Positions 1,226 through 19,203 of a stretch of 64,000 nt of DNA are shown here, piece by piece; the stretch's first letter is position 1; the number at the start of each line of letters is the position of its first letter. Made by a program: the position numbers and the translations under genes. This DNA is from an uncultured Nitrososphaerota archaeon (GTDB lineage Archaea; Thermoproteota; Nitrososphaeria; Nitrososphaerales; CADDZS01): assembly GCA_963799845.1 (NCBI GenBank), contig CAWCYI010000006.1:480001-544000 (forward strand), in the 5' to 3' direction. Under the pieces are notes generated by a model. It searched no databases and was not told the DNA's origin. It worked only from the letters and a program-made list of their open reading frames with translations.

Positions 1226-1783
1226 ATGAAAACAAGGACAATGATCGTATTAGGAACCGCAGTCGCCGTAGCCGTCGGATTGACTTTGCCGTTCGCCAGC
1301 GCGTATGGAACTTCTGGTGGACTACAGGGGTTGATCAGCGGAATGATGGGGAGAAACACACAGGAGTCATCATATCCATCAATGATGGGTAATGGTTACA
1401 GCTATGGAGGCGGGATGATGGACCAAGGTGGGATGATGTCGTCAGGATCGATGATGGGTAGTAATTATGGCAGCTCCTGCTATCAGTATATGCAGAACTA
1501 TTACTCCACCAATGTTAGCCGAGGAAACCTGGTCATCATCTCTGGATATTCCTTCCATCCGTCTAGCTTGACAGTTACAAGGGGCACGACCGTCACTTGG
1601 ATCAATATGGATTTCGCCACTCTCACGGTAACTTCTGGAACCGAGCAAAACCCTACAAATCTCTTTGATTCTCACGAACTCTCACATATGGAGAGCTTCA
1701 GCTATACTTTCACATTCCCAGGTGTCTACCAGTACTATTGCGATATTCATCCAGGAATGGTCGGAACGATAACCGTGACTTAG
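1226..1783 (+). CDS. Secreted plastocyanin/azurin-family blue copper protein with a Met/Gly-rich N-terminal region
   Basis: Signal peptide; GTTVTWIN and YYCDIHPGMVGTITV type 1 Cu motifs; the first His ligand position appears altered (DFATLTV). Confidence 0.85.
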   Translation: MKTRTMIVLGTAVAVAVGLTLPFASAYGTSGGLQGLISGMMGRNTQESSYPSMMGNGYSYGGGMMDQGGMMSSGSMMGSNYGSSCYQYMQNYYSTNVSRGNLVIISGYSFHPSSLTVTRGTTVTWINMDFATLTVTSGTEQNPTNLFDSHELSHMESFSYTFTFPGVYQYYCDIHPGMVGTITVT

Positions 1784-1814
1784 GGAAAAGGCGATTCTCA
1801 GATTTGGTAATCAT

Positions 1815-2390
1815 GTGGTCGTCTTTTATTTCATCGAGGACATTGAAGTTAGGGTCTGGGAGTACTCAAGATCGGAGTGGACATTTGATTTGAGCAGAGA
1901 CGGAATCTCAAAGGTCGTTGTCATCTCCCTCGCTGCGATTGTGATTGCAATCGCGATTTTCGGAGGCTACTTGGCATATTCTCTGAATAATCCTAATAGA
2001 AACGCCTCTTCCAGCTCGAAAACGAATGCTAGCATCTCGCTCGCAGGTTTTTCCATCGATCCTGTCAGTTCAAATCTTTCAGGAACTGTCTTGGTAAGAA
2101 GTAGTTCACCCCTAGTTCAGACAGACCTTTACATCAATGGGACTTTCATGGGTTCAGTGAACTACACAAAGGGAATGATGTCGAATTCAACTTATTCCCT
2201 GATGTACTCAACTAATCCGAGATTCATGCCGATGATGTCTAGAATGCAGATGGTCGCTGGGAGAAGCTACATGATCACGTTGATGGCAGTGTTCAGCGAC
2301 GGAACGAGGTTCAATGCATCTTCGGCTGTCGTTGCTGGAGAGAAATATCAAATGGGGTCTTCGTCAAACGGAATGATGTCTTCAACTTAA
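1815..2390 (+). CDS. Met-rich membrane-anchored hypothetical protein (true start probably TTG near 1890)
   Basis: Single TM, Ser/Met-rich extracellular domain, located in the copper cluster. Confidence 0.6.
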   Translation: MVVFYFIEDIEVRVWEYSRSEWTFDLSRDGISKVVVISLAAIVIAIAIFGGYLAYSLNNPNRNASSSSKTNASISLAGFSIDPVSSNLSGTVLVRSSSPLVQTDLYINGTFMGSVNYTKGMMSNSTYSLMYSTNPRFMPMMSRMQMVAGRSYMITLMAVFSDGTRFNASSAVVAGEKYQMGSSSNGMMSST

Positions 2391-2439
2391 CATACGATCC
2401 CAGATTTGATAGTGAAAGAAGATAAATCTAACAATCAAA

Positions 2440-2820
2440 TCACGTAGTTGACGTTGGAGAGTCAGTACTTTCTGAAAAAATAATCAGATGTCGATCAGGA
2501 TCGCATACCACAAATTCTTTCATGCCGTATTCCTTTTGCGCCAAGTGGCCGCTGACGATATCTTTTGCAAGACATTGTTCATAGAGTTCATCAATCCCCC
2601 TCATGCCTATGTAACAAACAGATCTCTTTGGATTTTCGGACGGCTCGAAGAGATTGAAGTGAATTTCAATTCCGTCCCGCTCAATTATCAGGAAACCCTC
2701 GTCCTTGTAAGCCGGTTGGAAACCCAATTTTTGGTAGAAATCAACCGTTTCATCAAAGTTTGTTGAGGCAAAACGAGGGGCTATGCTCAGTAGTTCACTC
2801 TTGGTTTTCTATTGAGTCAT
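2440..2820 (-). CDS. VOC/glyoxalase-bleomycin resistance family protein (in-frame TAG at codon 4 after ATG 2820)
   Basis: SIAPRF...ETVDFYQKLGF...YGMKEFVVCDPDRHLIIF; homology extends upstream of the called ORF. Confidence 0.75.
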
Positions 2821-2949
2821 GATGAATTCGTTCACTCAGTTGAGATGAAACAATTACGTTTTCTGTCGCGATTTCAATAATTGGACGGGTGAGAAATCCT
2901 CGCTGGGAATACGATTCTTTGAAATATCAGCAAGGGCCAGATTTACTCC

Positions 2950-3369
2950 ATGCACTTGCGACTTTGGCGGAGCAAGTATCATTCTGGCTCCGCGTTGCCA
3001 GTAATAAATGAGAGAAACCTGGAGCAGCCCCCTTGGTGCTATCTGCTATGGGGAGCGCCTGCGGTTCTCGCTTTTGTGACATCATACGGCTACGACCGTT
3101 ATTTCTTATCCGTTACTGAGGCAGGAATTTTCTGGACTTTGTCAGTGGCCTGGATTGGAATTGGATGTTTGCTCAATGGCAGGTTTTGTGGCAGAGTACA
3201 CTGTTTGATAGATGGAATCTCCTTTCCGCTTCTGGCCATCATAGGAGTGCTCAATATTCTCTCAGTAATAGCAATCAGTTGGAGCCTGTTTTGGGCATCG
3301 TTCTTTGTGATACTGGCTACAAGTTTTGGTGCAGAGCTGGTTTTGGGAAGGTACCGTCCAAGGAGTTAA
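2950..3369 (+). CDS. 4-TM membrane protein with a Cys/His motif (possible metal transport or binding)
   Basis: GCLLNGRFCGRVHC motif between TM helices. Confidence 0.6.
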   Translation: MHLRLWRSKYHSGSALPVINERNLEQPPWCYLLWGAPAVLAFVTSYGYDRYFLSVTEAGIFWTLSVAWIGIGCLLNGRFCGRVHCLIDGISFPLLAIIGVLNILSVIAISWSLFWASFFVILATSFGAELVLGRYRPRS

Positions 3370-3371
3370 GA

Positions 3372-3524
3372 GTGAATTTGTCTATCAAATGCGCAGACTG
3401 CAATTGTTTACCTGCCGAATGCGCTGCAAGTGAATCTGCCATATCCTGTCCTAATTGCAATCAAGAGATATGCTGTTGCTGGGAAGCAATCCATGAAACT
3501 GGAACGTTCTCTAACTTGAAATGA
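3372..3524 (+). CDS. Small Cys-rich (metallothionein-like) protein, 50 aa
   Basis: AGGAG RBS at 3361 and GTG at 3372; 9 Cys (CxxCxC...C...CxxC...CCC). Confidence 0.55.
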   Translation: MNLSIKCADCNCLPAECAASESAISCPNCNQEICCCWEAIHETGTFSNLK

Positions 3525-3683
3525 TCAAACCCAATAAAATCGCAATAAACATCGGGACGTAATCTGGACGGAAGTTATCGCTACTATTGGAAGAAAGAAC
3601 TTTCCGAATCAGGTTGCGATTTAACAAAATTCCGAGATACCCAGTGATGCGTAAGAAGCTAAATACCCTTGTTTTCAGCCTCT

Positions 3684-3711
3684 GTTACTAGTAAACACGT
3701 GCGCGAATCCC
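3684..3711 (+). repeat. 28-bp repeated site, copy 1
   Basis: GTTACTAGTAA-ACACGT-GCGCGAATCCC; matches the copies at 7913 and 16137. Confidence 0.75.
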
Positions 3712-3948
3712 GTGTCTAGCCAGAGTTCATATTTCAGCAAATTATTTGAAACGGATCGGAGAATGGTAGGTTGACGGAGAAAGTCGCGATGGTTATTGGT
3801 GCTCTTCAGGTGCCATATGGTCCCCCTGAAGGTCCTAAACGGTCAATCATGTCTAGGTCGGACTTGCTGAGGCTTAGTTGAGTCGCAGCCACACTCTCTT
3901 CGAGCTGTTGTTCTGACTTCAACACAGTCAGTGATAGTGATCATTCAC

Positions 3949-4767
3949 TCAAGTTGACCCCGAGTCCTCTTCCTGTTCGATCATTTCCCTACCAGGCGAT
4001 ACGCGACTGAGGGGAGCAAGTGACCTGGCGTTTCGGTAGAGACAATACGTTGCGACAACGATCAATATTTGGAAGACATTGTAGCCAATGGCATAGATTC
4101 CTTTGTAGGCAAGAAAGTAGAGGAATCCGCTTGGAAATGCTCCGCCCGACGAGCCTTGGATCACTAACGAAATCGCTATAATCGCGGCCAGAACGAACAA
4201 GACGAAAAGACCGAACCATTTTAGATTCGTCCTTCGCGCGTCGCTCCTCGTTCTCCTTGCCGTGAGCAGGAGTGCGGGAGCTCCTGCAAGAAAAGTCGGT
4301 AAGTACACCGCTATGATCAAGACTGTCGCTACCGTTGCAACGGGAACCCCGGTGGCTGTTTCTAAGACGAGCAACCCAAAATAGAATGCAATCATCGCAA
4401 GGGTCATGCCCCAAACGCCGAACCGAAGTTTGCTCCATTTGAGAGTGTCCCTGAAGAGCGGATCAGATCGGCGGGCGGTGCGGACGGTACCGTCTATCCA
4501 GGCAAGCAGTACTATCGGCAGAGCTCCGACGTAGAAAACACTGATCACAAGCTGGGTGAGCGGGTCTGTGCTCATCGGTGTCGGGAGTACGGGTATCAAA
4601 AAGATGCAGACAACGCCAAGCCAAAGAGCTTGGCTCCGCGAAAATCGATTCCTGAGCACTCGTCTCAATACGAACGCCCAGTAAGCGGCATAAGCCAGGA
4701 TTGCACCTGCGACGATATCCTCCGCAAAGACCGCACCTATCATCATCAATATAATGTCACTTGGCAT
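3949..4767 (-). CDS. Polytopic (about 7 TM) membrane protein, putative sensor
   Basis: Multiple hydrophobic helices; ATG 4767 overlaps the stop of the upstream KaiC-like gene. Confidence 0.7.
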   Translation of the reverse strand: MPSDIILMMIGAVFAEDIVAGAILAYAAYWAFVLRRVLRNRFSRSQALWLGVVCIFLIPVLPTPMSTDPLTQLVISVFYVGALPIVLLAWIDGTVRTARRSDPLFRDTLKWSKLRFGVWGMTLAMIAFYFGLLVLETATGVPVATVATVLIIAVYLPTFLAGAPALLLTARRTRSDARRTNLKWFGLFVLFVLAAIIAISLVIQGSSGGAFPSGFLYFLAYKGIYAIGYNVFQILIVVATYCLYRNARSLAPLSRVSPGREMIEQEEDSGST

Positions 4768-5434
4768 ATGCACTAACCTCCATCCCCTTAGAAGTAAAAG
4801 ATACATCATAGTATCCAGGGTGAGGGGGAACTCCCCTCATCTTCCTGATCCTCAACAACGGGAGGACTTTGAATCCTTCCTCGTAGAGTTTGAATTCGAT
4901 TACGCCGTCGAAGAGTTGTCGCATCGAGCTCAGCGTCTTCGTATCGTGCATCCCTTCATCCATCGTCGCAAGCAACACAATGTCGTACTGTTTGAGATCC
5001 GACAATAGTTGAGAGAGGAAGCTGTACATCATCTCCGGGGGATTCAGGACAAGGAGCGGAGAAAGAACGTCGGTAACAATCCTTATCCTTCGTTTACTGT
5101 TGCTCCTTGCGAGCTCCTTGAGCTTCACCGATATGGCAGTCAAGTCATTTATGTCAAATTTGATCTGCCCACCTTCACTTGCAAACCACACCGGACTCGC
5201 TTGACTCAAGTCGATTTTGTATCCCCTGACGTCCTCGAGAACATCATGGACGGGCAGCCTCGTCATGTAGACGCAAAAATCTCCGAGGTCGAGGCCCGAC
5301 TTCGTGAAGAAGTAGCCCAGTACTTCCTTTCCGGCGTCAGGACTCCCAAAGACTAGCACTGCGGACTTACTTGGATAGCCATCTCCACCTAAAATCGCGT
5401 CAAGGGATCCAAAGCCGGTGGAAACCAAAGTCAA
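4757..5434 (-). CDS. RAD55/KaiC-like single-domain ATPase
   Basis: STGFGSLDAILGG, degenerate Walker A GSPDAGKE, LFDGVIEF, LRIRKMRG. Confidence 0.85.
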   Translation of the reverse strand: MTLVSTGFGSLDAILGGDGYPSKSAVLVFGSPDAGKEVLGYFFTKSGLDLGDFCVYMTRLPVHDVLEDVRGYKIDLSQASPVWFASEGGQIKFDINDLTAISVKLKELARSNSKRRIRIVTDVLSPLLVLNPPEMMYSFLSQLLSDLKQYDIVLLATMDEGMHDTKTLSSMRQLFDGVIEFKLYEEGFKVLPLLRIRKMRGVPPHPGYYDVSFTSKGMEVSAYAK

Positions 5435-5561
5435 CAGCGACCGAAGAAGACTTTCAAGATAAACGTTTGCTCACAGCCCGGGACGATTAAGAAAACCTGT
5501 TTCCGCGGCAGGCCAATTTCGGAAAAGTATTTATCGAGTTAGGAAAGCTCCAGCGCACTCA

Positions 5562-5858
5562 ATGCCAGATGAAAATAACGGAAAGGGTACGCTGAAAGAA
5601 TTTGTTGACAGACTAAACAACGATCCGGCGACTCGTACGCAATTTCTCTCCAATCCCGTAGAAATCCTTCGAGGCTACGGGATAACGCTGTCGAAGTCAG
5701 CAGAAGAAGGACTGATGCAAATCATAGAAGAGTATCGCGAAAAGATCGCGTCGATTAGAGAATTACAAGGTAAGACAATAACAACAACTACAACAACAAC
5801 GACGACAGAAAGGAATGACTCCATAGAACCAGTTGGAGGTACGATGGACTTCATCTGA
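5562..5858 (+). CDS. Putative RiPP precursor with an NHLP/Nif11-like leader and a poly-Thr tract
   Basis: LKEFVDRLNNDPATRTQFLSNPVEILRGYGITLS resembles NHLP-clan leaders; ends TITTTTTTTTT...VGG-TMDFI. Confidence 0.6.
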   Translation: MPDENNGKGTLKEFVDRLNNDPATRTQFLSNPVEILRGYGITLSKSAEEGLMQIIEEYREKIASIRELQGKTITTTTTTTTTERNDSIEPVGGTMDFI

Positions 5859-5909
5859 GCGAGAATTGACCGAAAGCCCAATCTACTCAGAATTCGGTTC
5901 GGAGATAGG

Positions 5910-6845
5910 GTGGATAAGGAGGACCGTCAGCGAGCACGCCCTAATGCTGCCTTCGGTTTTCAAGCATTCCTTCATTATTATCTCAATGATAGACTAAAGA
6001 TCCTTACGAATGCGGTTCCAAAGGAAGCGAAGCTTGGCAGAGTATTTCCCTACTCGATCTTCTGGTTAGCCAATGCCCTTCCCAAATCAGAGCTTGCGAA
6101 TGTTCGCAAGCTCGCTCTTTCGGGAGTTTACGATTGCCTGAGTGTTACGATTGCAGATGACTTGCTGGATCGCCAAATCGAAGCGGATCGCGCAATACTA
6201 GTCGCGCTCGCCGGCGAGTATGCCAACATGCGCGCCAAACTACAAAGAGAACTTTTCGTTCCCAAATCAAGATTTTGGGATATCGTTTCATATTGCAGAG
6301 CCGACGCGGCCAAATACAACAGATGGAATTCGATCTGTACCGCATGGTCGGAGCCTTTGTCGGATAAATTCCTTCGGGATTCCTCGCGGTATGTTGTCTC
6401 TGTATTGCTGCCAGGTCTTGCTGGCGTCGCTATACTAGCTAGAAGTGAAAACAGGATAGAGGAGATCTCACGCTTCCTGAGGACTTTCTCCATGGCTTGG
6501 CGCATAGTTGACGATATCTGGGACTGGGAGGAAGACCTCCACGTGCGAAACTTGAACAATTCAACAATCCTCCATCTGATAAGGGCAAAGTCCGGAGCCG
6601 ATAAAATGTCAAACGAGATTGTCCTAGCCAAGTTCCTCGATGATAATTTTGTACGAGAAATTTACCAAAGGGCGTTAGAGCTCTTGAAAAGAGCTAAGAA
6701 AAGCTCGCACCAATTGAATTGCCCATATTTAGAGGAGTTCATGGAGAGCCAGATTGATTACCACGCCAGTCAGCGCGACTCGCTGCTGGGCTCCAACAAG
6801 TCTTTCCGGAGAGAGCTGACGAGTTTGCTCCCTGCAATCTCATAG
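5910..6845 (+). CDS. Class I isoprenoid synthase/prenyltransferase-fold enzyme
   Basis: Two Asp-rich motifs, DDLLD and DDIWDWEED, in an all-helical protein. Confidence 0.75.
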   Translation: MDKEDRQRARPNAAFGFQAFLHYYLNDRLKILTNAVPKEAKLGRVFPYSIFWLANALPKSELANVRKLALSGVYDCLSVTIADDLLDRQIEADRAILVALAGEYANMRAKLQRELFVPKSRFWDIVSYCRADAAKYNRWNSICTAWSEPLSDKFLRDSSRYVVSVLLPGLAGVAILARSENRIEEISRFLRTFSMAWRIVDDIWDWEEDLHVRNLNNSTILHLIRAKSGADKMSNEIVLAKFLDDNFVREIYQRALELLKRAKKSSHQLNCPYLEEFMESQIDYHASQRDSLLGSNKSFRRELTSLLPAIS

Positions 6846-7137
6846 GACAGCTAGGATTCGGAGTATTCGCCACAACCAGCGCTAAGAACTTCGCTGTTAC
6901 CGATCGCGATCAACTCCGTGATCCAGTTGACAAGTGAACAGCTGGAGACTTCTCTACAAAATTTAGAACGTTGAACGATGCGTGGAATGTGATTTTGCTT
7001 TCCAGTTTTTGGAGGACAGAAGGGAAATCCGTGCTTGAGAACCAGCGGTTAAGCGAAGTAACCGCGAACGAGAAGAAATTTCTCAAGAAGTGGAAGCGTT
7101 CGAAAAAGTCTGAAGATGAATCCAGACAAAAGGAGGA

Positions 7138-7655
7138 TCGAAAATTCGAAGATGGGAGACGGCTTTGCGCCATTATGATCACTGACATTGTTGGTTACAG
7201 TGCCCTATCTCAAGAAAATGAGACGCATTCTCTTGAAGTTCTACAGAAGCACAATAGTTTGCTACGCGAGTTCTTCCGGAAGTACGGTGGTGTCGAGGTG
7301 AAGACAATGGGCGATTCTTGGTGGACGTACGGTTGGCTGGCCGGACTGGTTTGGGCATACGCTAGATCGGGCAAAGAAGGAAGAAGCCAAGAAAATTCAA
7401 GAGCAAGTCCAAGAATTTTCAAAGACACATTATGTAAGGTCGGATTGGCTGATTGTTATTCATCAGAGATTGGGCGAGAACGACGAGGCCATCCGGCTCC
7501 TAGAAAAAGCCTACGATATGCGGGAATACGATTCGTTGACCGGCATAAACGTTGAACCAATGTATGACGTCATACGTTCTGACCCGCGGTTCGTAGCGCT
7601 ATTGAAGAAAATAGGACTGGACGAATACGGCAATCTCGCGATTCCTTCTGGGTAA
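7138..7655 (+). pseudogene. Class III adenylate/guanylate cyclase-TPR gene remnant (internal deletion plus frameshift)
   Basis: RRLCAIMITDIVGYS...VKTMGDS joins directly to the TPR C-terminus ...RSDPRFVALLKKIGL. Confidence 0.8.
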
Positions 7656-7912
7656 CCTGACGCGGCTGGAGAGAGCTTACGAGTAACATTCTGGTTATCT
7701 GGTTGCGATCAGCTTCTAACAAACTTTCGACGACCTTCATCATGACCCCAGATTTCAGGCTTAACTGAAGAAAATTGGTTTTCCCGACGCAGGGTGATTC
7801 GATCGAATCTACCATCTAAACGCTGGCCTAGAGACGAACAAGAGGCCAACTTGGAAGCAAGAAAAAGAGTAACATTTTGACTCAAATCTTAATGTTCTGA
7901 GCTATTGCAATC

Positions 7913-7950
7913 TTTACTAGTGAATACGTGTCCGAATCCCGTACCTCGCA
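7913..7950 (+). repeat. 28-bp repeated site, copy 2 (similarity extends to TACCTCGCA)
   Basis: TTTACTAGTGA-ATACGT-GTCCGAATCCC-GTACCTCGCA. Confidence 0.8.
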
Positions 7951-8801
7951 AACCTTTTCTTTAGGGCGTGATCGCCCTAAGACAGAGTACTGAGAGTACT
8001 GAATCAGATACTTCTTCTAATAAAAGTCGGAACCAACCAAGCCGCTCGCCGCCCAGCTCCGATAGGAGTTCCAACACCAACTAGTGCTGCTCGCATCGTA
8101 AGTAAATGCGCAAAACGAAGAACTATCGAGTTCATTAAGCACTCCTAAGGAAAATTATCGTATTCTTTCTTTGGAACGAAAAGTAAAGTCGAGCTGTTCA
8201 AGGAGAACGAGGAGAGGTCGAAAGGAAAACTACTGGAGCGCATACCTCAATAGTTCACAGTATGATTCCACAGACCAGATGACTTCGATTGCATTCACAT
8301 CCTCGAATCCGCAGAACGGATTCAGAGTCGGATTCATGCGGTAGAAACGCTCACCTGCCAGTTTGCGTGAATAGTCCTCTGAGACAAACAACTCCTCAAA
8401 GATTAGTTCGATAGGAAGCGCTTGTTCTTGTATCTGCATCTATTCTTTTTCACCTGGAATTTTGGGTCTGAATCCAGTGATGTTCGCTAAGATTCCTGTT
8501 GATATTAGATTAACAATATCTGACATTTCTACTAAGCCTCTTTCTCGACACTTAGACAGGGGAAAACTTCCCACATGGATGTGGACGAAAAACTAGTGAT
8601 AGCAAAATAGCTATCGGCGGCAGAAAGTTAGATCTTTTGAGTGGGCGATTCATGCTTATTCAGAAACTTTTACGGGTTTTCCCAAATATGTGCGGGATGT
8701 TCAGTTATCGTAAGGATTTTGAGCAACAATTGATTTAGACTGCCCTAAAGTGACAAGAAATGTTTTGGAGGGACCTGTGTTTTGGGTAAATAATACACAT
8801 C

Positions 8802-8862
8802 GGTGCCAGGGATGAACTCTGGATTCGGATCGGGTGCCAGGGATGAACTCTGGATTCGGATC
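8802..8862. repeat. Tandem duplication of a 30-bp unit
   Basis: GGTGCCAGGGATGAACTCTGGATTCGGATC at 8802 and 8833; single copy in segment B. Confidence 0.9.
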
Positions 8863-9035
8863 CGAATTTCTTTCCAAGAGGAAAATTGCAGAAAAGTAAG
8901 TTTGGGATAATCTTGAAGTTCTTCTTACATGAGCAAAATGGCCCATTTATTGAAAGTCCGATTCAGAATTGAGATTTTCTGATCCGCTGCGAAAACACGC
9001 GACTCAACTTCGAGATTGAAAGAGCTAACAAACGT

Positions 9036-9184
9036 AATCATTCGATTTTGACCAACATCGCGAATTGGGTGCCCCAATTTGATTAAAAAACCACTTTGGG
9101 GATTTTTTTACGTGTTTGGGAGAATTCATGCTTTAGCCCAAACCCCTCATTCATCAAATTAGCGGTTTCCCCGAAGATTACGAT
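9036..9184 (-). ncRNA. Candidate structured 3' element, copy A
   Basis: Near-identical to 10840-10984; nested stems AATTTGAT/ATCAAATT and GTTTGGG/CCCAAAC. Confidence 0.4.
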
Positions 9185-9484
9185 TTATGCCAGCGGCGCG
9201 ATCAATTGAAGGGATCCAACTTGTCCTAATACATTTGCATAAGTTTCTACAACTCGAGCACCTTTCTCAGTGAGCACGTAATTTTTTCTGCCCCGTACAT
9301 CGCTCGGGCTCACCAACCCCAATTCTTCGAGACTCCTAATGAAATTCCTGCAGACAGCCCATGAAAGCTTTGTTCGGTACATGATGTGAGTCGGCCTACC
9401 AGCTCCATCAAAAATAGCTTGGAGAATATCAATTTTCACTTCCATGTTGGATCTTCTTGGACGTGATGTTATCATTGTTGGCAA
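9185..9484 (-). CDS. Winged helix-turn-helix transcriptional regulator, paralog A
   Basis: RRSNMEVKIDIL...PTHIMYRTKLSW...YVLTEKG, typical archaeal small wHTH. Confidence 0.85.
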   Translation of the reverse strand: MPTMITSRPRRSNMEVKIDILQAIFDGAGRPTHIMYRTKLSWAVCRNFIRSLEELGLVSPSDVRGRKNYVLTEKGARVVETYANVLGQVGSLQLIAPLA

Positions 9485-10049
9485 AATTATGTCATTCTGG
9501 TCACTTTAAGAAGCTCTCGCATTCTGTACGGCTGATCACCAATTCATGTTATGAGTACGCAACACGGTTACCTCTTAGGACTCTATGTTTGATCGAAAGG
9601 GACACAACTTCCTAAATCGGAACAACAAAAGATCGCATCATATCGAATCCCGAACAAACGATAAAGATCAGTTTAAGGCTAGCTATTTTTCAGACGAACG
9701 AATGATTTTTGACCGCATTTACTTCGAGATTCTGACCTTCGGCTTTCTCGTGACTGTAATCGTTGGAACAGCTTCGATTTCTTTCTGAGGACTTTCTTAA
9801 AAGAAATTTCACTGTCCAGTTCGAGTATGCCTTAAGTCATTCAAAATCCCAGCCGCGATCCCGAACGTCTGATTGACACAAACGCAATCAAGCCGTTCGC
9901 GCAATTCTGACTCGAAAGACACATGGAATCCTTCCGAAGCCTGAGATTAGATACCTGAAGCGATATGTGAGCACATTGAGAGAGTTTCGGGTCAAGTTGG
10001 TATGAATTAAGCAAACTGAGCTAGTAGTTCCTGGTATAAAGGCGGAACA

Positions 10050-10443
10050 GTGAGTGCTCAAGCGCAGCTCGAGGTTATTAGAAAGATGGTTGGGCAACTA
10101 AATTCGAAACGTCCGAAGTGCAAGGAAGTTGGAGCGAGCTATGATTTCCGTGGTCGTGAAGGTGTGGTCAAGATAAAGTACAAGGGCACAACGCATTTCC
10201 CCGTAGATGACCTACGAGTATCTCGAGGGACCGTTTGCGGGTTCGAAGCTCTTTCAATACTACATCCCGAAAGGTGACAAGACGGAGGTCGTGATGGTGG
10301 GCAACCTCGTCTCTCCGAACCTACCCGATGACAAGCTCAAGGCACTCTACGATGATTATGTGCAGGTTGTCTTCGACGAAGATAACGTCTCCAGAATCGT
10401 ATATGGTATACTCAGATATGTGCGAGATGTTCAGTTATCGTAA
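10050..10443 (+). pseudogene. Frameshifted/truncated hypothetical protein (SRPBCC-like)
   Basis: Two overlapping ORFs; MTYEYLEGPFAGSK motif; the 3' end runs into the duplicated block at 10416. Confidence 0.45.
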
Positions 10444-10839
10444 GGGTTTTGACCAACAATTGATTTCGTCTGCCCTAACATGAGGAAATGTTTTGGAGGG
10501 GCCCAGGTTTTGGGTAAATATAATATCGGTGCCAGGCATAAACTCTGGATCTAAATTTCCCTCCAAAGAGGAAAGTTAAAGAAATTTGAGTTCAAGGTAG
10601 TTTGAAGTTCGTTATACTTGAGGAAAGGTAATTCGCAGCCGATTTGACCAGTTCAGAAAGCACTTGATGACTCCAAAGGCTTACTCAGTTATCATTTTTA
10701 GCATGTCGGATCCAACCTCAAGAAGGCTTGACAATAGCGTAAGGCCGTTTATGCTATTCCATTCCTGTTTTTCTCTGATTTAATGTGATTTTTTGCGTTG
10801 CAGGGAACATGACTTTCTACACGAATGATCGGTTGAACA

Positions 10840-10984
10840 AATCATTCGATTTTGACCAACATTGCGAATTGGGTGCCCTAATTTGATTAAAAAACCACTT
10901 TGGGGATTACGTGTTTGGGAGAATTCATGCTTTAGCCCAAACCCCTCATTCATCAAATTAGGCGGTTTCCCCAAAGATTACGAT
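10840..10984 (-). ncRNA. Candidate structured 3' element, copy B
   Basis: Outer stem CCTAATTTGAT/ATCAAATTAGG is perfect in this copy. Confidence 0.4.
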
Positions 10985-11287
10985 TTATGCCAACGGTGCG
11001 ATCAATTGAGGAGATTCTAGTTGCCTTCTAACATTTGCATAGGTATCTAGAACTCGGGCACCTTTCTGGGTGAGTGTGTAGTTCTTTCTGCCCTCCGCAT
11101 CGCTCGAGCTGACCAGTCCCTGCTCTTCGAGAGCCTTTACGAAATTCCGCATAGGTGCCCATGAAAGGTTTGATTGGTACATGATGTGTGTTGGCCTGCT
11201 AGCTCCTTCCGAAATCGCCTGGAGGATATCGATCTTGACATCTAGCTTGGATCTTCTTGGACCCGCTGTTGTTATTGATGTAGTCAT
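10985..11287 (-). CDS. Winged helix-turn-helix transcriptional regulator, paralog B
   Basis: About 70% identical to 9185-9484 by manual alignment. Confidence 0.85.
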   Translation of the reverse strand: MTTSITTAGPRRSKLDVKIDILQAISEGASRPTHIMYQSNLSWAPMRNFVKALEEQGLVSSSDAEGRKNYTLTQKGARVLDTYANVRRQLESPQLIAPLA

Positions 11288-11467
11288 TGTATTTCATAGA
11301 TATGTAATAGGTATGTCGTACTATATACATCTATGTCGAAGATTCCCTGAGGATTTCCATTTGATCCGTCCAGGGGAAGTTAACAAGATCGCAACATATC
11401 GGATTACGAGCAAACGCCTAAATTTATTTCCAAAAATCATCAGAAATCTACAAGGAAAGCAAACGAC

Positions 11468-11630
11468 TTGTCTCATCATGTAATCCTAGGTTGCAGGATC
11501 GGCGCATTCGATTTCCTGAATTGGGGAGACATTGAACCAATTGAGAAAAATAGCGTTCTTCTCGCGGCAAAAGATCACGATTTACAGAGGAACGAACGAG
11601 GAATACTGTTCTTTCATAACCCCGTTGCCC
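11468..11630 (+). pseudogene. Tyrosine integrase fragment
   Basis: LGCRIGAFDFLNWGDIEPI resembles the box I (catalytic Arg) region of thaumarchaeal integrases; the rest is missing. Confidence 0.55.
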
Positions 11631-11933
11631 TAGTCTCAGTCTGGATCCTCACGCTTTGCGGCTCTTACTTCTATAGTCCCATCCATCGACTCGTAAGTAA
11701 TGACCTGACCCTTTGGTAATCCAAGAATCGGCTCGAATGACATACTCGTCACTTTGAGAAGATAGATCCCTTATTCTCTCTTCTAGTTGTTTTTTTGTGG
11801 CAAATGAAGGACGTGCCTCAGACACGGACAACGTTGAACGATGGATTTATTGTTGGATATTTTTCTAATGCCATATCGATCTAACGATAGGGCGTTCTAC
11901 ATGTCATACGTGGATGCAGCGGTGGCGCATGCA

Positions 11934-11950
11934 CGTCAATGATATTGACG
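11934..11950. promoter_or_regulatory. Perfect palindrome upstream of the Lrp pair
   Basis: CGTCAAT-GAT-ATTGACG. Confidence 0.35.
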
Positions 11951-12142
11951 GGGTAAAGGCGCAAAAAGGCGCATCTCCCTTTACCACAATCCGAAGTATC
12001 GCAAGACGTTGATGCCATCGCCATTAACGCAAACGACTTGTCCGACGGTCTGAAACGAGGAATGTCACTTTATATAGCATAGAAAACTGTTATAGGCAGT
12101 TATTTACCTATCCCTCCCCAACTATAACTGCTGAACCTGGCG

Positions 12143-12604
12143 ATGTATTCGCAACTGTCGGATTTGGACAGGAAGATGCTAAGGCTACTTCTGGATTCTG
12201 AGGGGAGCATGCCGACTCATGAAATGTCTATGCAGCTCGGTATTCCCTTGAGCACCGTCCAAAGAAGAAGGAAGAGATTAGAGGAAGAATATCTCATCAA
12301 GCATTATTCGTTAGATCCGATGAAATTTGGATATAGACGGATCGACCTCTTAATTTACACTCAAGGTGGCGAGACGATGAACATTGGAAAAGAATTGTTG
12401 GAGCGTGAAGAGGTAACCTACGCTGCAAGAACCATCGGAGAACATACTATAGACTTGCGCGTCGAAGTATTTGTAAAGGACAACGGTATTTTGCTCAATC
12501 TCCTTGAAGACGTAAAGGCCATGAAGGGAGTGAGAGACGTAGTCTGGACTGAAGTGATAGAGACTATCGGACGAAAGAATCCTCCAAATCACTTCGTTCT
12601 GTAA
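12143..12604 (+). CDS. Lrp/AsnC family transcriptional regulator, paralog 1
   Basis: LSDLDRKML...LGIPLSTVQRRRKRLEE HTH plus RAM domain. Confidence 0.9.
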   Translation: MYSQLSDLDRKMLRLLLDSEGSMPTHEMSMQLGIPLSTVQRRRKRLEEEYLIKHYSLDPMKFGYRRIDLLIYTQGGETMNIGKELLEREEVTYAARTIGEHTIDLRVEVFVKDNGILLNLLEDVKAMKGVRDVVWTEVIETIGRKNPPNHFVL

Positions 12605-12722
12605 TTAGTTTACTTTGAAAATTCGATCCTAAATTCTTTCACCCGAAACGCCTTCTCGTTCCTCTGATAACGAAACAGAATCCCAAATATTTATCTTGGG
12701 CATTTTTTGATTTTATGCCAAA

Positions 12723-13184
12723 ATGCTTTCTCAGCTTTCAGAAGCTGACAGGGAGATGCTACTTCTTCTTCTGGATTCTGAGGGAGGGGTGTCCTCTATT
12801 GAATTATCCCGTCAGCTCAAAGTCTCGATAGGTTCTATCCGAGAACAACGAAAGAGATTGGAAGAAACTTGTCTCATCAAAGATTATTCGTTAGATCCAA
12901 CGAAGTTTGGGTGGAGACGAATTGATCTTCTCATCTATACTGAAGGTAGAGAGACAATGAGCATAGGGAAAGCGCTACTGAAACGCAAAGAGGTTACATC
13001 TGTTACCAGAATGATTGGAGAACACACAATCGACTTGAGGGTTGAAGTATTCGTCAGAGATAATGGCGAACTGCTCAATCTCATCGAGAAAATAAAGACT
13101 ATGATAGGCGTGAGAGACGTAGTCTGGACTGAAGTAGTAGAGACCGTAGGAAGGAAAAATTGGCCGAATCGCATTTTAGTTTAG
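12723..13184 (+). CDS. Lrp/AsnC family transcriptional regulator, paralog 2
   Basis: Tandem paralog of the same length with a diverged HTH helix. Confidence 0.9.
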   Translation: MLSQLSEADREMLLLLLDSEGGVSSIELSRQLKVSIGSIREQRKRLEETCLIKDYSLDPTKFGWRRIDLLIYTEGRETMSIGKALLKRKEVTSVTRMIGEHTIDLRVEVFVRDNGELLNLIEKIKTMIGVRDVVWTEVVETVGRKNWPNRILV

Positions 13185-13669
13185 GCTATACCTAGATCAG
13201 ATCGAAGTTAGGGCACCAAATAGACATTTTTGGTATAAATCCAATGATTTTCTTGGCCAATGTCTTATATCAAGGTCATCTCCATTTTAACGCAAAAAAC
13301 TGTACCAGTGATGAACTGGAATGGAACCCGAAAAGGAGAAGAACTAGGCAATGGCAATCTATATACCAAAATCAAACAACTGCTCAAAGATGAGACCTTG
13401 GTTGGATAATACTTCACTTTCAATTGCTCCTGATGACTAATTTAGTTGGATTAGGCACTGTTTGTTGCATTTTGTAGTAAGCTCGCTGCTGAGAAATGTC
13501 GGGTCGCGTTTTATATGAATCCTAGATACATAGACGCCCTAAGTATTCAGCAGATAAACCACATATTGGATTTACTCTTCTGCTACTGTCTCTTAATTCA
13601 TAATTGATTTAATCTGCATAGTATTTCATATACTCAAGGAAAATCGAGAATTGCCATCTGATACAACTT

Positions 13670-14728
13670 ATGATGTTGATACAGCAGCAAGAATGGACGA
13701 AATGGTGGAAAACGAAAAGATTGCAGCTGATAGTGCGATCTGCAAGACCCCAAGTCTCGGTTATCGGAGTCGGCGGCGCAGGCTGCAACATCGTCTCCTG
13801 GGTCAAGCAGAAGAAGGGCGGCATAGCCGGCACGAAATTGATTGCGGCAAATACTGATGCGACGCACCTCAGCATAATCAAAGCAGATCGGAGGATCCTG
13901 CTCGGGGAGAAGACAACTCGAGGAATGGGAGCAGGAGGATATGCGGAGAGAGGCGTAGCAGCTGCTAGAGAATCAATCGAGCAGGTCAAGAAAGACACTG
14001 CTGGATCAAACATAATTTACATCGCAGCCGGACTTGGAGGAGGAACCGGTACCGGAGCTTCGTGGGTTATTGCGGACGCTCTTCGACCAACGGGCGCTCT
14101 GATAATTGGAGTAGTTACTCTTCCCTTTGCAGTTGAAAGGTTCAGGTTCCAGAGCTCAAAGGACGGACTTCATAAGTTGAAAGGTTACTGCGACACTGTC
14201 GTTGTCATCGACAACAACCGACTAGCTAAAGTTGCAGGTGATCTTCCATTGAAGGAAGCGCTCGGAGTTGCAAACGAGCTTGTCGGCGAATTTGTCAAAG
14301 GAATCACCGAGACAATTACAACCGCGAGTTTGATCAACATCGACTTTGCGGACTTAAGGGCGATCATGGAGAAGCGAGGAATCGCAGCGATTGGAGTTGG
14401 CGAGTCTACTGGCGAATCGAGAGTAGAGAGAGCCGTTCAGATGGCGCTCGATGCTCAGCTGCTCGATATCAAGGATGCGACTAAGGCCTTTGGTGTGCTG
14501 ATCCACGTTTCTGGTGGTGACGACATCACTCTGGACGAAGTTACCCAGGCAGGAGAGATGGTCACGAGATCTCTTCCAGCAAAGGCGCAAGTCGTCTGGG
14601 GAGCGAGAGTTGACCCCACGCTGCAGGGAAAGGTCAGGGTCATGGTAGTTCTCACCGGAATTGAGAGCACGTTTGATACGGAAAAAACTAACTCCATATC
14701 CCGGATGATCAGATCAAGATCCAAGTAA
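13670..14728 (+). CDS. ftsZ: Cell division GTPase FtsZ (N-terminus probably in another frame, from 13651)
   Basis: VIGVGGAGCN, NTD, GLGGGTGTG, NIDFADL, VVWGARVD motifs. Confidence 0.95.
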   Translation: MMLIQQQEWTKWWKTKRLQLIVRSARPQVSVIGVGGAGCNIVSWVKQKKGGIAGTKLIAANTDATHLSIIKADRRILLGEKTTRGMGAGGYAERGVAAARESIEQVKKDTAGSNIIYIAAGLGGGTGTGASWVIADALRPTGALIIGVVTLPFAVERFRFQSSKDGLHKLKGYCDTVVVIDNNRLAKVAGDLPLKEALGVANELVGEFVKGITETITTASLINIDFADLRAIMEKRGIAAIGVGESTGESRVERAVQMALDAQLLDIKDATKAFGVLIHVSGGDDITLDEVTQAGEMVTRSLPAKAQVVWGARVDPTLQGKVRVMVVLTGIESTFDTEKTNSISRMIRSRSK

Positions 14729-14845
14729 TCTGATATCGGAAGCACGCGTCATTTCTCGGGGCGAAAAATAGAAAATCCCTTTTATTTTTCCAGAATTGGG
14801 ATATTCGGCCCAAACAAAGCAAGAGAATCTAAAGTAAGAAGACGA

Positions 14846-15193
14846 TTGGCGCATGAGCTGGGAATCTGTTCATTCTGCCTTAAGCAGAAAAACAATCGAA
14901 AGATAATATGTTGCTCTGAAGAATGCTATAGACAATTCAGAAATAACTTTTCCTTTTGGATAAAATCTCGGCAAGATTTGAGGGATAATGCATTACAGAG
15001 AGATGGATACAAATGCAAAAAGTGCGGTAAAAAAGCAACCGATATAGATCATATTATAGAAATCATAGATGGCGGCCCAGAATTTGAACTAGATAATTTA
15101 CAGTCGCAATGCGAGGATTGCCATAAGAAAAAGACGCGGGAGAGCTGGAAGATAAGAGCAAATAGCGGGGCTAATCTAACCGAGCGAAACTAA
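14846..15193 (+). CDS. HNH endonuclease
   Basis: RDGYKCKKCG...DHIIEIIDGG...NLQSQCEDCHKKKT. Confidence 0.9.
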   Translation: MAHELGICSFCLKQKNNRKIICCSEECYRQFRNNFSFWIKSRQDLRDNALQRDGYKCKKCGKKATDIDHIIEIIDGGPEFELDNLQSQCEDCHKKKTRESWKIRANSGANLTERN

Positions 15194-15206
15194 GGGAAAT
15201 TTCCCG

Positions 15207-15515
15207 TTATCGAGATGAACGAAACCGAAATTTGCTTCCGTAAATGACTCGGAACCGCAACAAATGAAACCATTCGCTCGTTCTGATTTCACTCCGATCA
15301 GTTTCAGAACTTCCCTTAGAAATGAAACCATCAGCAAAATGGGCAACTGAGAAACTTGGAAGTTTGTGAATCTCTTCGATTAGTTCTTGACGAGACTTAG
15401 CAAGGTGAGAAACGATTCGAATTAATCCTTCGTCCGAGGAGAGCTGATCGCATAGATCATGCAACGATTCTTCGTATTCGTCTAGCGGATTCTTCGATGT
15501 TTCTTTGACGGTCAA
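15207..15515 (-). CDS. Hypothetical protein
   Basis: ORF with plausible composition; no recognisable motif. Confidence 0.35.
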   Translation of the reverse strand: MTVKETSKNPLDEYEESLHDLCDQLSSDEGLIRIVSHLAKSRQELIEEIHKLPSFSVAHFADGFISKGSSETDRSEIRTSEWFHLLRFRVIYGSKFRFRSSR

Positions 15516-15664
15516 TTTGCTTCAATCTCTTCAATATCTGCTTCTTTCGTCTCTGCAATTCTACTAGCTCATACTTTTGAAGCCCCATCTTCTTGGCTAT
15601 TGTTTTACGGATCTTCAGATAGAACCTTCTACGGCCTGAATATTTCTACGATTGATTTCTGCAT
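15512..15664 (-). pseudogene. Degenerate AbrB/MazE-like small DNA-binding protein
   Basis: FYLKIRKTIAKKMGLQKYELVEL on the minus strand, out of frame with ATG 15664. Confidence 0.35.
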
Positions 15665-16136
15665 GTCGATCATCAAGAGAACGATGGACGTCGATATTGC
15701 TTCGTACCTGAATAAACCGGAGCACGCCCTCAGGGCCAGAACTTGACTCCTGTAAAGCCGACGTGAAATAGTAAGCCAAATCCATGTCTAACAAAAGCGA
15801 TGGGATAAACTTCCTCCTCCGAGCGGTCCGCTCGAACTACCGGGATAGCAGATCCTCCCGATTTGAGAGATCTGTATTCACTGAAAGCTTCGCCGAGTAG
15901 ATCGCATCTCCAGTACACCTCACCAGACGGATTTTGACGCAGGGTATGTATAAGAACCGGCGACCGCATCCTTCGATTGCTTCAGAGTTGAACTGACTGG
16001 GTTCTGGTTAAATTCAAAGATGGGAGGAAATCGACCAATTCGTGATTGATTTGGGTCAAATCAAACTATTCATTTTGAATCCAAGAAATGACCTCAGGTG
16101 GCTTTGAAATCCCAGAGATTTGGACTTGAATTGGCT

Positions 16137-16174
16137 TTTACTAGTAAATACGTGTCCGAATCCCCTACCTCGCA
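16137..16174 (+). repeat. 28-bp repeated site, copy 3
   Basis: TTTACTAGTAA-ATACGT-GTCCGAATCCC-CTACCTCGCA. Confidence 0.8.
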
Positions 16175-18166
16175 TATTTACCTCTCAGGAAAATCTCTGG
16201 GAGCTTTCTCCTAAACTGCTCAGGATTGTCCTCCGGCATTTGAAGTGCTAGCTTTGCTACCAATGACCTAAACCTCGGCTCCCCATGAAAGGAAGCAAAT
16301 CCCGGGTCTATGTTGAGAAGCGGATCCCCGATCACGGTATGCTCCTCATAAGATTTTTCCAACCAATCGAGAGCTTCAGCATTTTTGCCAATGGCAGCAA
16401 ATACCTGTGCCAGGAAGAGTCCATTTATGTCCCGCTTTGCACGCATCTCCAACAATTCATCTAGGATTTTCGAAGCATCCTGGCTTCTACCGGCCTTTGC
16501 GTACGCGAACCCCAAATTCGAAAGACAGAAAGGGGAACGACCAGAAAGTTCTGTCGCTCTTTCAAGACTTCTTACTCCCTCATCAAACCTTCCCAAGAAA
16601 ACTTGAGAAAGGCCAATGTCGCTGTGAATGAAAGGAAAATCAGGATCCATTTCGAGCGCTTTCTCATATTCAGATATTGCCAGCTCGTTTAGCCCACAGA
16701 GCGACAATGCAGTCCCCACATGTGCCCTTGAAGCAGGGGATAAAGGATTCAGTTCCGCACCCTTACGCGCTTCGTCAATCGCATCTTCATGATGACCAAA
16801 GTTGGCCAGAAAAAGGGCGTAATAAGTATGGGCTTCAGAATAGCTGGGGTTTAGCTCCAAAGCTCGAGTGAGTTCTGCTCTTGAAGTCTCCCAGTGAGCA
16901 TCGAAAAATGCTACTCGGCCCATGGCGAAATGGGCTTCGGGGATTGTATCGTCAAGCTTCAAAGCTCTGAGGGCTAATTCCTTAGCTTTTGGATAAGCCT
17001 CTCTAGGAGGCTCGAAACCAAAGTATCCCAATCCACAGTAACAGTAAGCAAGCCGCGCAATTGCGGCGGCATACTCTGGGTCTAGGTCGATTGCCTTTTG
17101 AAAGAGTTCCTCAGCCTTTCTGTAATCTGGTCCGTTATACTTTTGTAAAAAGTACAGCCCTCGAACATAGAAGACGTAGGCTTCCGGATTCGTAGTGGAC
17201 CTTTTTCCAAGCAGCTTCCTATCTGAATCCAACAGTTTGAGCTTCAGGGCGTCTGCGACATTTTCTGCCACACCCTTCTGAATCGAAAATACATCTTCCA
17301 TCTCTCGGTCATAGCTCTCCGACCAGAGATGTTGATCGGTTGTTGTATCAATTAATTGGGTGGTTATTCTTAGTCTTGTTCCGGATTTTCTCACGCTCCC
17401 CTCGAGGATTTTCGCAACCCCCAGCTCTCGTCCGATCTCCCTCGCATCCTTGTTCGTATTTCTGTATTTCATCGCAGACGTACGGGAGATAACGATGAGC
17501 GAAGGAATTTTTGAAATGGTCGAGATGACTTCTTCGGTCATGCCGTCGGCGAAGTAAGCATCATTGGGATCGGGACTCATATTGACGAATGGAAGGACCG
17601 CTAGCCTGTTGGGTTCTGTTCCTCAGCTCCCGGCTCTTCTCCCAAGGCAACTGAACTTTGTAAATTTCCAATGGAGAGGCCACGTTCTTCAGCGACTTTG
17701 CTCCAAGACTTACGAGCGGGAGCTCGATCTTGTTTTGTACCTGGTCGTAGACTTGACGGGTCAAAGAAATACCGTCAATATCCGCAAGGGATTGAACTCT
17801 GGAGGCAATGTTGACAGCATCACCAAAAATATCTCCGTTGCTTGATTCGACAATGTCTCCCAGGTGGATTCCCACTCTAAGATGGATTTGTTTTTCGACC
17901 GACAAACCGATGTTAAACTCCCTGGCGGCTCTCTGAATGTCGTAGGAGCACCTCGTAGCATCCAGCGCGTTCGGAAAATCCACCAAAAATGAGTCTCCTA
18001 TCATCTTTACCACGTTCCCTTTGTGTCTCTGAAAAATGGGGCGTAGCAGTTTGTCATGCTCTTCAAGCAGAACTAGCGAGAGCGACTCGTTTCTCTGCCC
18101 CATCGCCGTGAAACCGACAATATCGGTAAACATTATGGCCGCAAGCCGACGCTGTCCCTGAGACAA
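16165..18166 (-). pseudogene. Class III adenylate/guanylate cyclase + TolB-like + TPR protein, split by a frameshift near 17610-17640
   Basis: RRLAAIMFTDIVG...GDAVNIASR, then in another frame NRLAVLPFVNMSPD...YFADGMTEE and TPR repeats. Confidence 0.85.
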
Positions 18167-19191: not shown

Positions 19192-19203
19192 TTTGTTACA
19201 TCC

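Follow-up and report, generated by a model that had tools for sequence, protein, structure and literature searches.

A 64 kb stretch of DNA from an uncultured Nitrososphaerota archaeon (positions 480,001 to 544,000 of contig CAWCYI010000006.1; the window, to whose coordinates positions without a contig name refer) harbors copies of a short site in which a palindrome is joined to a sequence resembling the 3′ end of a tRNA. The genome to which it belongs (G000) comprises 4.6 Mb in nine contigs, among them C3, C4, C6, C7, and C8, and is 86.7% complete. An original prediction had placed three same-orientation copies of a 28-bp site near 3684, 7913, and 16137, and these copies are present. On the + strand, the 28-mer consensus is matched at 7913-7940 with one mismatch and at 16137-16164 with none, and 0 of 100 dinucleotide-preserving shuffles yield any match. 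The copy at 3684-3711 is genuine but diverged (4 of 28 bases mismatched) and for this reason is picked up only at a looser setting. The site and the features that bear most directly on it are the following.

3684 to 3724, + strand: copy 1, a diverged member, GTTACTAGTAAA followed by CACGTGCGCGAATCCCGTGTCTAGCC (nhmmer E 1.2e-8)
7913 to 7950, + strand: copy 2, the palindrome with G for A once, then a T-arm and acceptor strand like those of tRNA-Gly(CCC) (nhmmer E 1.8e-9)
7951 to 7986, + strand: right flank of copy 2, AACCTTTTC and then the hairpin TTAGGGCG-TGAT-CGCCCTAA
7951 to 16136, no strand: the segment between copies 2 and 3, 8.2 kb
11468 to 11621, + strand: remnant of a divergent tyrosine recombinase, box I region ...LGCRIGAFDFLNWGDIEP..., corresponding to about residues 135-213 of intact paralogues
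16137 to 16174, + strand: copy 3, the exact palindrome and a tail like that of tRNA-Gly(CCC) (nhmmer E 6.9e-10)
63644 to 63774, − strand: intron-bearing tRNA with the T-arm 11-mer GTCCGAATCCC and an acceptor strand, CCGAGGC, unlike that of the repeats

Alignment of the three copies with their flanks gives a real repeat length of about 38-40 bp, from the palindrome through ...CCTCGCA, with 36 of 38 bases identical between copies 2 and 3. The aligned copies read palindrome, two bases, and CGTG(TC/CG)CGAATCCC(G/C)T(A/G)(C/T)CT(C/A)GC(A/C). The left part of the site is TTTACTAGTAAA, a perfect 12-bp palindrome, as had been predicted for one arm; 40 exact copies occur in the genome, as opposed to 0.4 expected from base composition. 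The predicted 11-6-11 anatomy does not hold. The blocks conserved across the family are the 12-bp palindrome, then TnGnG, then TCCC, of which only the palindrome is symmetric, and the partition is without basis since the two supposed arms are unrelated in sequence and not inverted copies of one another. The family consensus reads tTTTACTAGTAAATTcGtG..cgaaTCCCacatctcgCac.cgggaTTTACTAGTAAA.

On its right side, the site consists of the tail of tRNA-Gly(CCC). The gene for this tRNA, at C7:113855-113947, ends in ACGGGTTCGAATCCCGTACCTCGCA, which copy 2 matches at 23 of 25 positions and copy 3 at 22 of 25. Because this match takes in the acceptor strand ACCTCGCA, while the tRNA in the window shares only an 11-mer with the repeat, the origin lies in the tRNA-Gly(CCC) 3′ end and not, as had been proposed, in the T-arm of the window tRNA; the identity of the 11-mer GTCCGAATCCC itself stands. 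The window tRNA, called tRNA-Thr in the original prediction, is assigned as Val(GAC) with introns by ARAGORN and simply as tRNA by Rfam; without the intron option, ARAGORN reports no tRNA in the window. Genome-wide, ARAGORN reports 35 tRNAs, most of them given introns. Relative to tRNA-Gly(CCC), the T-stem is disrupted by two changes, G to T in the stem itself and T to C in the T-loop. In copy 1, the 7 bases immediately ahead of the palindrome, AGCCTCT, are identical to the 7 bases preceding AACACG in tRNA-Gly(CCC). The family profile also matches the real tRNA-Gly 3′ ends in G000 and in two relatives, G004 and G003.

The 8.2 kb segment between copies 2 and 3 contains small open reading frames (ORFs), two duplicated winged helix-turn-helix (wHTH; HTH_45) genes, the recombinase remnant, two Lrp/AsnC genes, an FtsZ-family gene, and an HNH gene, which suggests a decayed integrative element. 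An integrase fragment had been noted near 11470, and tblastn searches of the 64 kb window with three paralogues recover it with E values of 1.7e-4, 3e-4, and 0.002. It spans only about 50 residues, is carried by the ORF at 11384-11719, and escapes detection in a Pfam search of the window. At the right-hand end of the segment, the 471-amino acid tetratricopeptide repeat (TPR) ORF on the − strand (16165-17580) stops at 16165-16167, directly after base 16164, as the original prediction had observed. However, since the repeat really extends to 16174, it includes the stop and the three codons before it: copy 3 overlaps the final 10 bases of the TPR gene, whose terminal codons (...A R stop) derive from the ...CCTCGCA part. 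The TPR protein is full length relative to its paralogues, with alignments reaching residue ~446 of 471.

A profile seeded with 44 matches at up to 6 mismatches was searched with nhmmer against the whole genome, and at a site threshold of E <= 1e-3 it identifies 61 sites of the palindrome-plus-tRNA-tail family. Their cores fall into a Gly-like type (GTGTCCGAATCCCGT, GTGCGCGAATCCCGT), a Leu/Ser-like type (GGGGTTCAAATCCCAC), and a derivative (GTGCGGGGGTCCCAC). About one-third of the sites end in a second palindrome 45 bases past the first, so that “empty” palindrome–core–palindrome units arise, and longer composite units recur in the order D-type core, 78 bases, B-type core, 45 bases, palindrome. 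Same-strand clusters lie at C4:927-935k, 1371-1377k, and 1947-1973k, at C6:899-990k, and at C7:12-26k.

On a map of long ORFs, 49 of the 61 sites are intergenic, flanked by the gene ends 3′/3′ in 24 cases, 3′/5′ in 10, 5′/3′ in 10, and 5′/5′ in 5. Distances from site to gene range from −10 to >1000 bases; a fixed distance to gene starts or ends, as would suit a transcription-factor site, is not seen. Between sites lie one to three ordinary accessory genes in either orientation, including those for methyltransferases, short-chain dehydrogenases/reductases (SDRs), an amidohydrolase, a luciferase-like oxygenase, ABC transporters, RibD_C proteins, and cyclase–TPR pairs. In the arrays at C4:926-936k and C4:1370-1378k, co-oriented sites separate single genes or small operons, and no integrase gene lies within.

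Pairs of an adenylate/guanylate cyclase gene and a TPR gene occur at about 30 paralogous loci in the genome, and some are bounded by sites on both sides (e.g., C6:905182-907104, between the sites at 904926-904964 and 907209-907311). The tRNA at C6:376385-376551 (− strand) carries CTTACTAGTGA and GACTAGTAATT within a long intron. Two family sites are found 2.3 kb away, with a cyclase–TPR pair in between. The anticodon of this tRNA is apparently TAA, so that it is probably a tRNA-Leu, whereas ARAGORN calls it Ser.

The palindrome is also the target of a mobile element. In three of three copies, an element of the IS110 family (DEDD_Tnp_IS110 and Transposase_20) occupies its center.

C6:961378-962586, C6:903700-904905, and C4:1954607-1957762: copies of the IS110-family element

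The junctions read ...TTTACTAG|GTGACATGATCGAC on the left and ...CGACATGGG|AGTAAAT on the right, and the C4 copy is itself split by a group II intron reverse-transcriptase gene. The element provides a second, independent probe of the site.

Relatives available for comparison are fragmented assemblies, often broken at repeats. In G004, the tRNA-Gly(CCC) gene is followed by a 3.2 kb cassette (a 114-amino acid ORF and a cyclase–TPR gene) and then by a partial tRNA-Gly copy behind CTAGTAAAC. The end of this cassette and its site are homologous to 7664-7967 of the window, which covers the left flank and copy 2, while G002 shares only copy 2 and the right flank (7907-7986). This right flank resembles the sequence after the real tRNA-Gly(CCC) in G004 and after a family site in G002. 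The two-gene cassette beside the G004 site is also found at C6:1592-1593k between family sites, with the gene order inverted. In G003, a family site lies 10 bases after tRNA-Gly(CCC) and precedes a luciferase-like gene that shares 96% identity with a gene of a C4 array in G000; the tRNA-Gly(CCC) of G000 is followed by neither cassette nor site.

Cassette genes reach identities of 96% in G003, 86% in G004, and 90% in G007, which belongs to another genus (a DUF1801 gene of the C4 array). Over the core scpAB stretch, the corresponding values are 68-74% within the genus (G002, G004, G005, and G006) and 67% in G007. Homology with G004 and with G002 breaks at copy 2; the edges of the 24.6 kb island in which the sites lie fall at no site. 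An empty-site allele of the window modules was not found.

Intact relatives of the integrase remnant reside beside sites and tRNA genes. A 426-residue paralogue starts about 60 bases after the family site at C4:1973173-1973212, at the end of one array, with its gene at C4:1973274-1974554 and within a frame of 441 codons (C4:1973229-1974551) in which the R, H-x-x-R, and H...Y motifs can be named by inspection. On C8, about 35 bases separate an intact intron-bearing tRNA from the start of an integrase gene (C8:6718-7533), and on C3 a broken copy follows a tRNA-Ala. The family is divergent: it scores 13.2 bits against the PF00589 cut-off of 27.1, its best named matches are archaeal XerA (NCBIfam, 42.5 bits against a cut-off of 220) and the PHROG 1 integrase, and sequence searches found no relative of solved structure. 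C8:1-7821 and C7:16621-8796 are 98.4% identical, and the likeness ends inside the T-loop. The C8 side has the whole tRNA, while the C7 side has only its last 19 bases, AAATCCCATCCCCTCCACA, behind unrelated sequence. Such a stop inside the T-loop is the signature of site-specific exchange in the region from T-loop to 3′ end.

The combination of palindrome and tRNA tail extends well beyond this genome. The pattern TTTACTAGTAAATNNGNGNNNNNNTCCC, with 19 fixed bases, is estimated to produce about 4 chance matches in 1.2e12 positions. It occurs at 106 loci in species-representative genomes, 102 of them in records titled archaeal, and in an estimated ~600 metagenome stretches. By record title, the loci are distributed as follows.

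Bathyarchaeia/ota: 53 loci
Thermoplasmat-: 23 loci
Thaumarchaeota/Nitrososphaer-: 11 loci
Methanohalarchaeum: 3 loci
Methanothrix: 2 loci
ANME-1/Methanophagales: 2 loci
Halobacteria, Hadesarchaea, Micrarchaeota, Hermodarchaeum, and Euryarchaeota UBA202: 1 locus each
Plain “archaeon”: 3 loci
Bacteria: 4 loci, 3 of them in one conserved stretch and apparently due to chance

The palindrome is followed by a different tRNA tail each time, with CCA after the discriminator in 62 of 207 public sites. The varied tails, the CCA, and the rarely fully paired T-stem are as expected if a conserved left block is joined to the end of a host tRNA. In other phyla, the sites are mostly solitary and lie between ordinary genes. 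No protein family recurs at more than 3 of 118 metagenome sites (378 ORFs within 4 kb), and PF00589 is found in 2 of 148 ORFs to the right of public sites and 1 of 141 to the left, with housekeeping genes on both sides. In G041-G045, which represent other phyla, the integrase family of G000 was not found beside the sites; both sites of G045 are followed, about 200-600 bases away, by broken PF00589 pieces that are unrelated to this family by tblastn. What is new here is a palindrome-plus-tRNA-tail pattern that is nearly confined to archaea, spans many phyla, and has no common neighbor gene. In the available portions of the literature on thaumarchaeal integrated mobile genetic elements (iMGEs), archaeal integrons, Nitrososphaera islands, and archaeal tRNA gene fragments, no description of the site family was found, and the string TTTACTAGTAAA was encountered in published text in two unrelated papers.

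In Bathyarchaeia, the 45 bases before the palindrome form recurring classes (loci L029, L061, L122, and L129; loci L081, L105, L112, and L125). One class has the hairpin GAGAGATTCGAACTCTC. Past the tRNA tail, at about 20-35 bases, a motif similar to TTTTGAGGCTTATTTTGG is seen repeatedly. With recurring sequence both before the palindrome and after the tail, the two sides of many sites look element-derived.

Several other identities for the site were tried and rejected. As a piece of a split or intron-bearing tRNA, it should find its complement upstream; within 300 bases, the best complement reaches no more than 6/7 at 59 of the 61 sites, which is control-like, and 7/7 at the other two. Among the 207 public sites, the T-stem is paired at 5/5 in 2, and an acceptor complement of at least 6/7 lies upstream in 16, as opposed to 7 in the control. 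As for structured RNA, the window is without an Rfam match at gathering scores, and 20 public loci are without any at E <= 1. A hairpin downstream of the T-arm gains no support from covariation because 86% of the cells pair, but 229 of 500 shuffles do as well. Nor does the pattern appear to be a viral attachment (att) site, attP, since there are 0 matches in 2.9 million IMG/VR contigs.

The reading favored here, with a probability of about 0.58, is that the sites are att-type junctions left by serial tRNA-targeted integration by tyrosine integrases, as judged from sequence comparison. Each site would be a hybrid with an element-side block on the left, the palindrome TTTACTAGTAAA plus T(A/T)CGTG, and the T-loop, T-stem, and 3′ acceptor strand of tRNA-Gly(CCC) on the right. 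The integrase is proposed to exchange strands in the T-loop-to-3′ part of the tRNA, the element side bringing in the palindrome block. As further elements integrated into sites already present and their integrases decayed, co-oriented arrays would have built up in G000 in which modules are separated by sites. The real tRNA-Gly(CCC) is a hot spot in two same-genus genomes, followed by sites and differing cargo; in the window, copies 2 and 3 would bound the decayed 8.2 kb element, and copy 1 would represent an older, diverged junction. The divergent integrases may act on the family sites, and strands may cross at the point proposed. That the palindrome is the binding site of the integrase or of an accessory dimeric protein is a guess.

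The att-type reading is supported because it explains the tRNA-Gly likeness, the hot spot, the remnant, the integrases after site or tRNA, the break in the T-loop, and the patchwork of cassettes. The original prediction of recombination scars bounding accessory modules thereby holds, with the integrase remnant between copies 2 and 3 and, elsewhere, one- to three-gene cassettes separated by the family in co-oriented arrays; its dif-like architecture does not, so that it was partly right.

In the available portion of a paper on thaumarchaeal iMGEs (PMC6563490), 74 elements in 20 genomes have att sites of median length 17 bp, tRNA genes are the insertion target for 39 of 68, the 3′ part being used with a single exception and the att sites being short, and tyrosine-recombinase elements form arrays through site re-use; that portion mentions no multi-copy palindromic site. 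The sites described here share the tRNA 3′ part as target (the copies match the tRNA-Gly(CCC) end), direct repeats bounding a segment (copies 2 and 3 bound 8.2 kb with an integrase remnant), and a tyrosine integrase gene right after a tRNA or site. As in thaumarchaeal iMGE arrays, they are co-oriented and lie in an accessory island of a soil ammonia-oxidizing archaeon. In contrast to those elements as described in that portion, one genome holds 61 sites that mostly bound one to three ordinary genes without an integrase, a 12-bp palindrome belongs to the repeated unit, the tRNA-like parts are inexact, and “empty” units occur.

Segments bounded by att sites can also lack an integrase of their own. 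Cis-mobilizable elements (CIMEs) and integrase-less att-flanked islands are known from the integrative and conjugative element (ICE) families of bacteria. The cassettes resemble CIMEs as att-bounded segments without their own integrase and, as far as sequence alone can indicate, are candidates for movement in trans.

A number of observations weigh against the att-type reading. Its classical form leaves unexplained the palindrome in the repeated unit, the cross-phylum conservation, the integrase-less cassettes, and the old sites without partners. The divergent integrase family has 7 loci, 3 or 4 of them broken, for 61 sites, and none of the 4 PF00589 loci in the genome lies within an array. The sites and the resident tRNA differ at 2-3 bases, and for most cores of the other types the genome offers no exactly matching tRNA. 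The C7/C8 junction with its visible break carries no palindrome. Methanohalarchaeum has three sites within 12 kb on one strand, two of which share 233 bp from the palindrome onward, which points to the palindrome and not the T-loop as a boundary. In neither the complete Bathyarchaeota chromosome G042 nor G043 does the tRNA tail that adjoins the palindrome recur at <= 2 mismatches, although a fresh attL/attR pair would have a second copy; the same search in G041 returned only similar tRNA-Leu ends.

Further difficulties arise in the window itself. The ribosomal protein S8e gene and scpB are adjacent in the same-genus G004 and G006, with an intergenic gap of about 100 bases in G004 that in G000 is occupied by an island of 24.6 kb. 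The original prediction held that the sites partition this accessory region; they are internal to it, and its edges relative to G004 and G006 coincide with no family site. There is no tRNA between the S8e gene and scpB, and the window array is without an intact tRNA-Gly at its head, whereas an intact target tRNA does stand at one end at the tRNA-Gly genes of G004 and G003 and at the C8 tRNA of G000. Finally, recombination was not observed directly. Logan contigs from 4 soil runs of one study contain the stretch; aligned to window positions 1-19500, they bridge all three copies unchanged, and circular or deletion junctions at the sites were not seen in them. The joints within the window (9107 to 10907, 10627 back to 8976, and two small ones) do not fall at sites, and loose ends at 7912-7950 come from other family copies. 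As such contigs drop rare forms, this result amounts to a mere lack of support.

The most serious competitor, considered possible but clearly less probable, is an integron-like system in which integrase-less cassettes of one to three genes, each with one site, are moved in trans by a chromosomal recombinase. Exchange would take place in the palindrome center ACTAGT, flanked by the short inverted arms GGGATTT / AAATTCG, and such exchange would explain just the features that the classical att model does not: the palindrome in the repeated unit, the conservation across phyla, the cassettes without integrase, and the partnerless old sites. In its broadest form, which is held just as tentatively, TTTACTAGTAAAT plus the tRNA T-loop/acceptor tail would be the recombination site, a tRNA mimic, of a widespread and undescribed archaeal cassette system with an integron-like outcome, spanning Nitrososphaerales, Bathyarchaeia, Thermoplasmatota, methanogens, and Asgard archaea and served by a recombinase in trans.

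This proposal draws on the C4:926-936k and C4:1370-1378k arrays, where SDR, amidohydrolase, methyltransferase, ABC transporter, and cyclase–TPR genes lie between sites with no integrase inside, on the “empty” units with their 45-base spacing, on the shared sequence that begins at the palindrome in copies 2 and 3 and in two Methanohalarchaeum sites, and on the intact integrase directly after a site at one array's end. The IS110-family insertions into the palindrome, in 3 of 3 copies, also speak for it; a comparable choice of target is known from IS1111 elements, which insert at integron attC sites. On the other side, gene orientation with respect to the sites is mixed, the integrase does not resemble IntI (TIGR02249; 12.8 bits, with a cut-off of 265), an attC-like R′′/R′ pair is lacking, covariation lends the hairpin no support, and the window modules, at 4 and 8 kb, contain many genes and an integrase remnant. 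The circular or empty-site form, unseen in the Logan contigs, is a weak argument in the same direction. Membership among the integrons, one of the affiliations first suggested, therefore fails on the integrase score and gene orientation. Relative to integrons, including the archaeal ones in the available portion of PMC9668308, the co-oriented short sites, the small accessory cassettes, and the clusters without a nearby integrase are alike. No IntI is present here, the consensus has no attC R′′/R′ motifs, and the site is tRNA-derived, while “tRNA” has 0 occurrences in the main text of PMC9668308 as available.

An improbable alternative is a repetitive extragenic palindromic (REP) or miniature inverted-repeat transposable element (MITE) repeat whose copies spread by themselves or along with flanking sequence and take no part in moving the genes between them. 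In its favor are the many copies, their position mostly between genes, palindromic units of about 57 bp, the recurrence of longer composite core–palindrome units, and the mostly solitary sites between ordinary genes in other phyla. IS110 elements often target REP-like sites, in line with the insertions into the palindrome. However, a self-copying repeat would not track tRNAs, and here the variable part follows the tRNA 3′ ends of the host group, with the CCA in 62 of 207. A real tRNA-Gly gene immediately precedes sites in two relatives, core types differ with the tRNA, and in G000 and G045 sites have an integrase gene or remnant as a neighbor. By eye, target-site duplications were not seen at the few copies inspected.

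Less probable again is a regulatory or termination signal, common to many accessory genes, either an operator for a dimeric protein or a terminator working in both directions, given the T-runs that ATTTTTACTAGTAAAAA has on either strand. The perfect 12-bp palindrome would suit this role, wHTH and Lrp genes are common nearby, and 3′ ends face the intergenic sites more often than 5′ ends (both sides in 24 as opposed to 5 of 49). The distance to gene starts or ends is not fixed, though, the sites coincide with homology breaks between genomes, and the tRNA tail, the tRNA-Gly link, and the integrase links would go unexplained. Action of host XerA on dif-like modules is very unlikely: conservation across archaeal phyla with no shared neighbor gene would fit a conserved host enzyme, and archaeal XerA is the best NCBIfam match of the divergent integrase (though at 42.5 against 220 bits), but only the 12-bp palindrome is symmetric, with no ~11-bp inverted arms around a 6-8 bp spacer beyond it, and the array sites are co-oriented, unlike the pdif sites of the Acinetobacter plasmid modules on which XerCD acts, which alternate in orientation.

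If the att-type reading is true, much of the accessory content of large soil ammonia-oxidizer genomes has been assembled module by module at tRNA-derived sites, and modules have been exchanged between genera (90-96% identity as opposed to 67-74% in core genes). If the cassette system is the truth, it has expanded to dozens of sites in soil ammonia oxidizers and moves accessory genes between genera. The sites offer a simple sequence handle for mapping gene flux in metagenomes, and the conservation of the 13-base palindrome next to tRNA tails across many archaeal groups points to a conserved protein–DNA recognition step in archaeal integration.

The remaining features of the window are listed below.

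1 to 18632, no strand: window part of the 24.6 kb island (C6:474027-498632, from 5,973 bases before the window start to 18632)
6971 to 7816, + strand: broken cyclase and TPR gene, consisting of a cyclase fragment (6971-7555) and a C-terminal TPR piece (7664-7816) and stopping about 100 bases short of copy 2
16165 to 18166, − strand: cyclase (17561-18166) and TPR (16165-17580) pair
59790 to 59823, + strand: fourth, weaker family member, TCTAGTAAATTGGGGTTCAAATCCCAAATCTCAC (nhmmer E 3.3e-6), 160 bases from the 3′ end of an opposite-strand tRNA-Glu

Within the 8.2 kb segment, an internal duplication (8675-9480 / 10405-11280, 82-85% identical) carries the two HTH_45 wHTH genes. The Logan contig that joins 9107 to 10907, with 55 bases fitting either side, reflects either a variant without 1.8 kb or an assembly collapse. 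The Lrp/AsnC pair (12128-13184) and the FtsZ-family gene (13555-14748) have copies at C4:768864-769918 and C4:780010-781203, respectively, with 85-87% identity, which indicates a recent segmental duplication within the genome.

Two other repeats occur in the window. At 18360-18530, the right edge of the island, a repeat of 100-170 bp has dozens of copies in this genome and in the same-genus G003, and Logan contig depth there is 32 as opposed to about 5 around it. A 73-bp repeat (38-110) lies upstream of a cupredoxin-like ORF and has further copies at C6:1107418, 477950, 479072, and 475433; a copy in G002 directly adjoins a family site.

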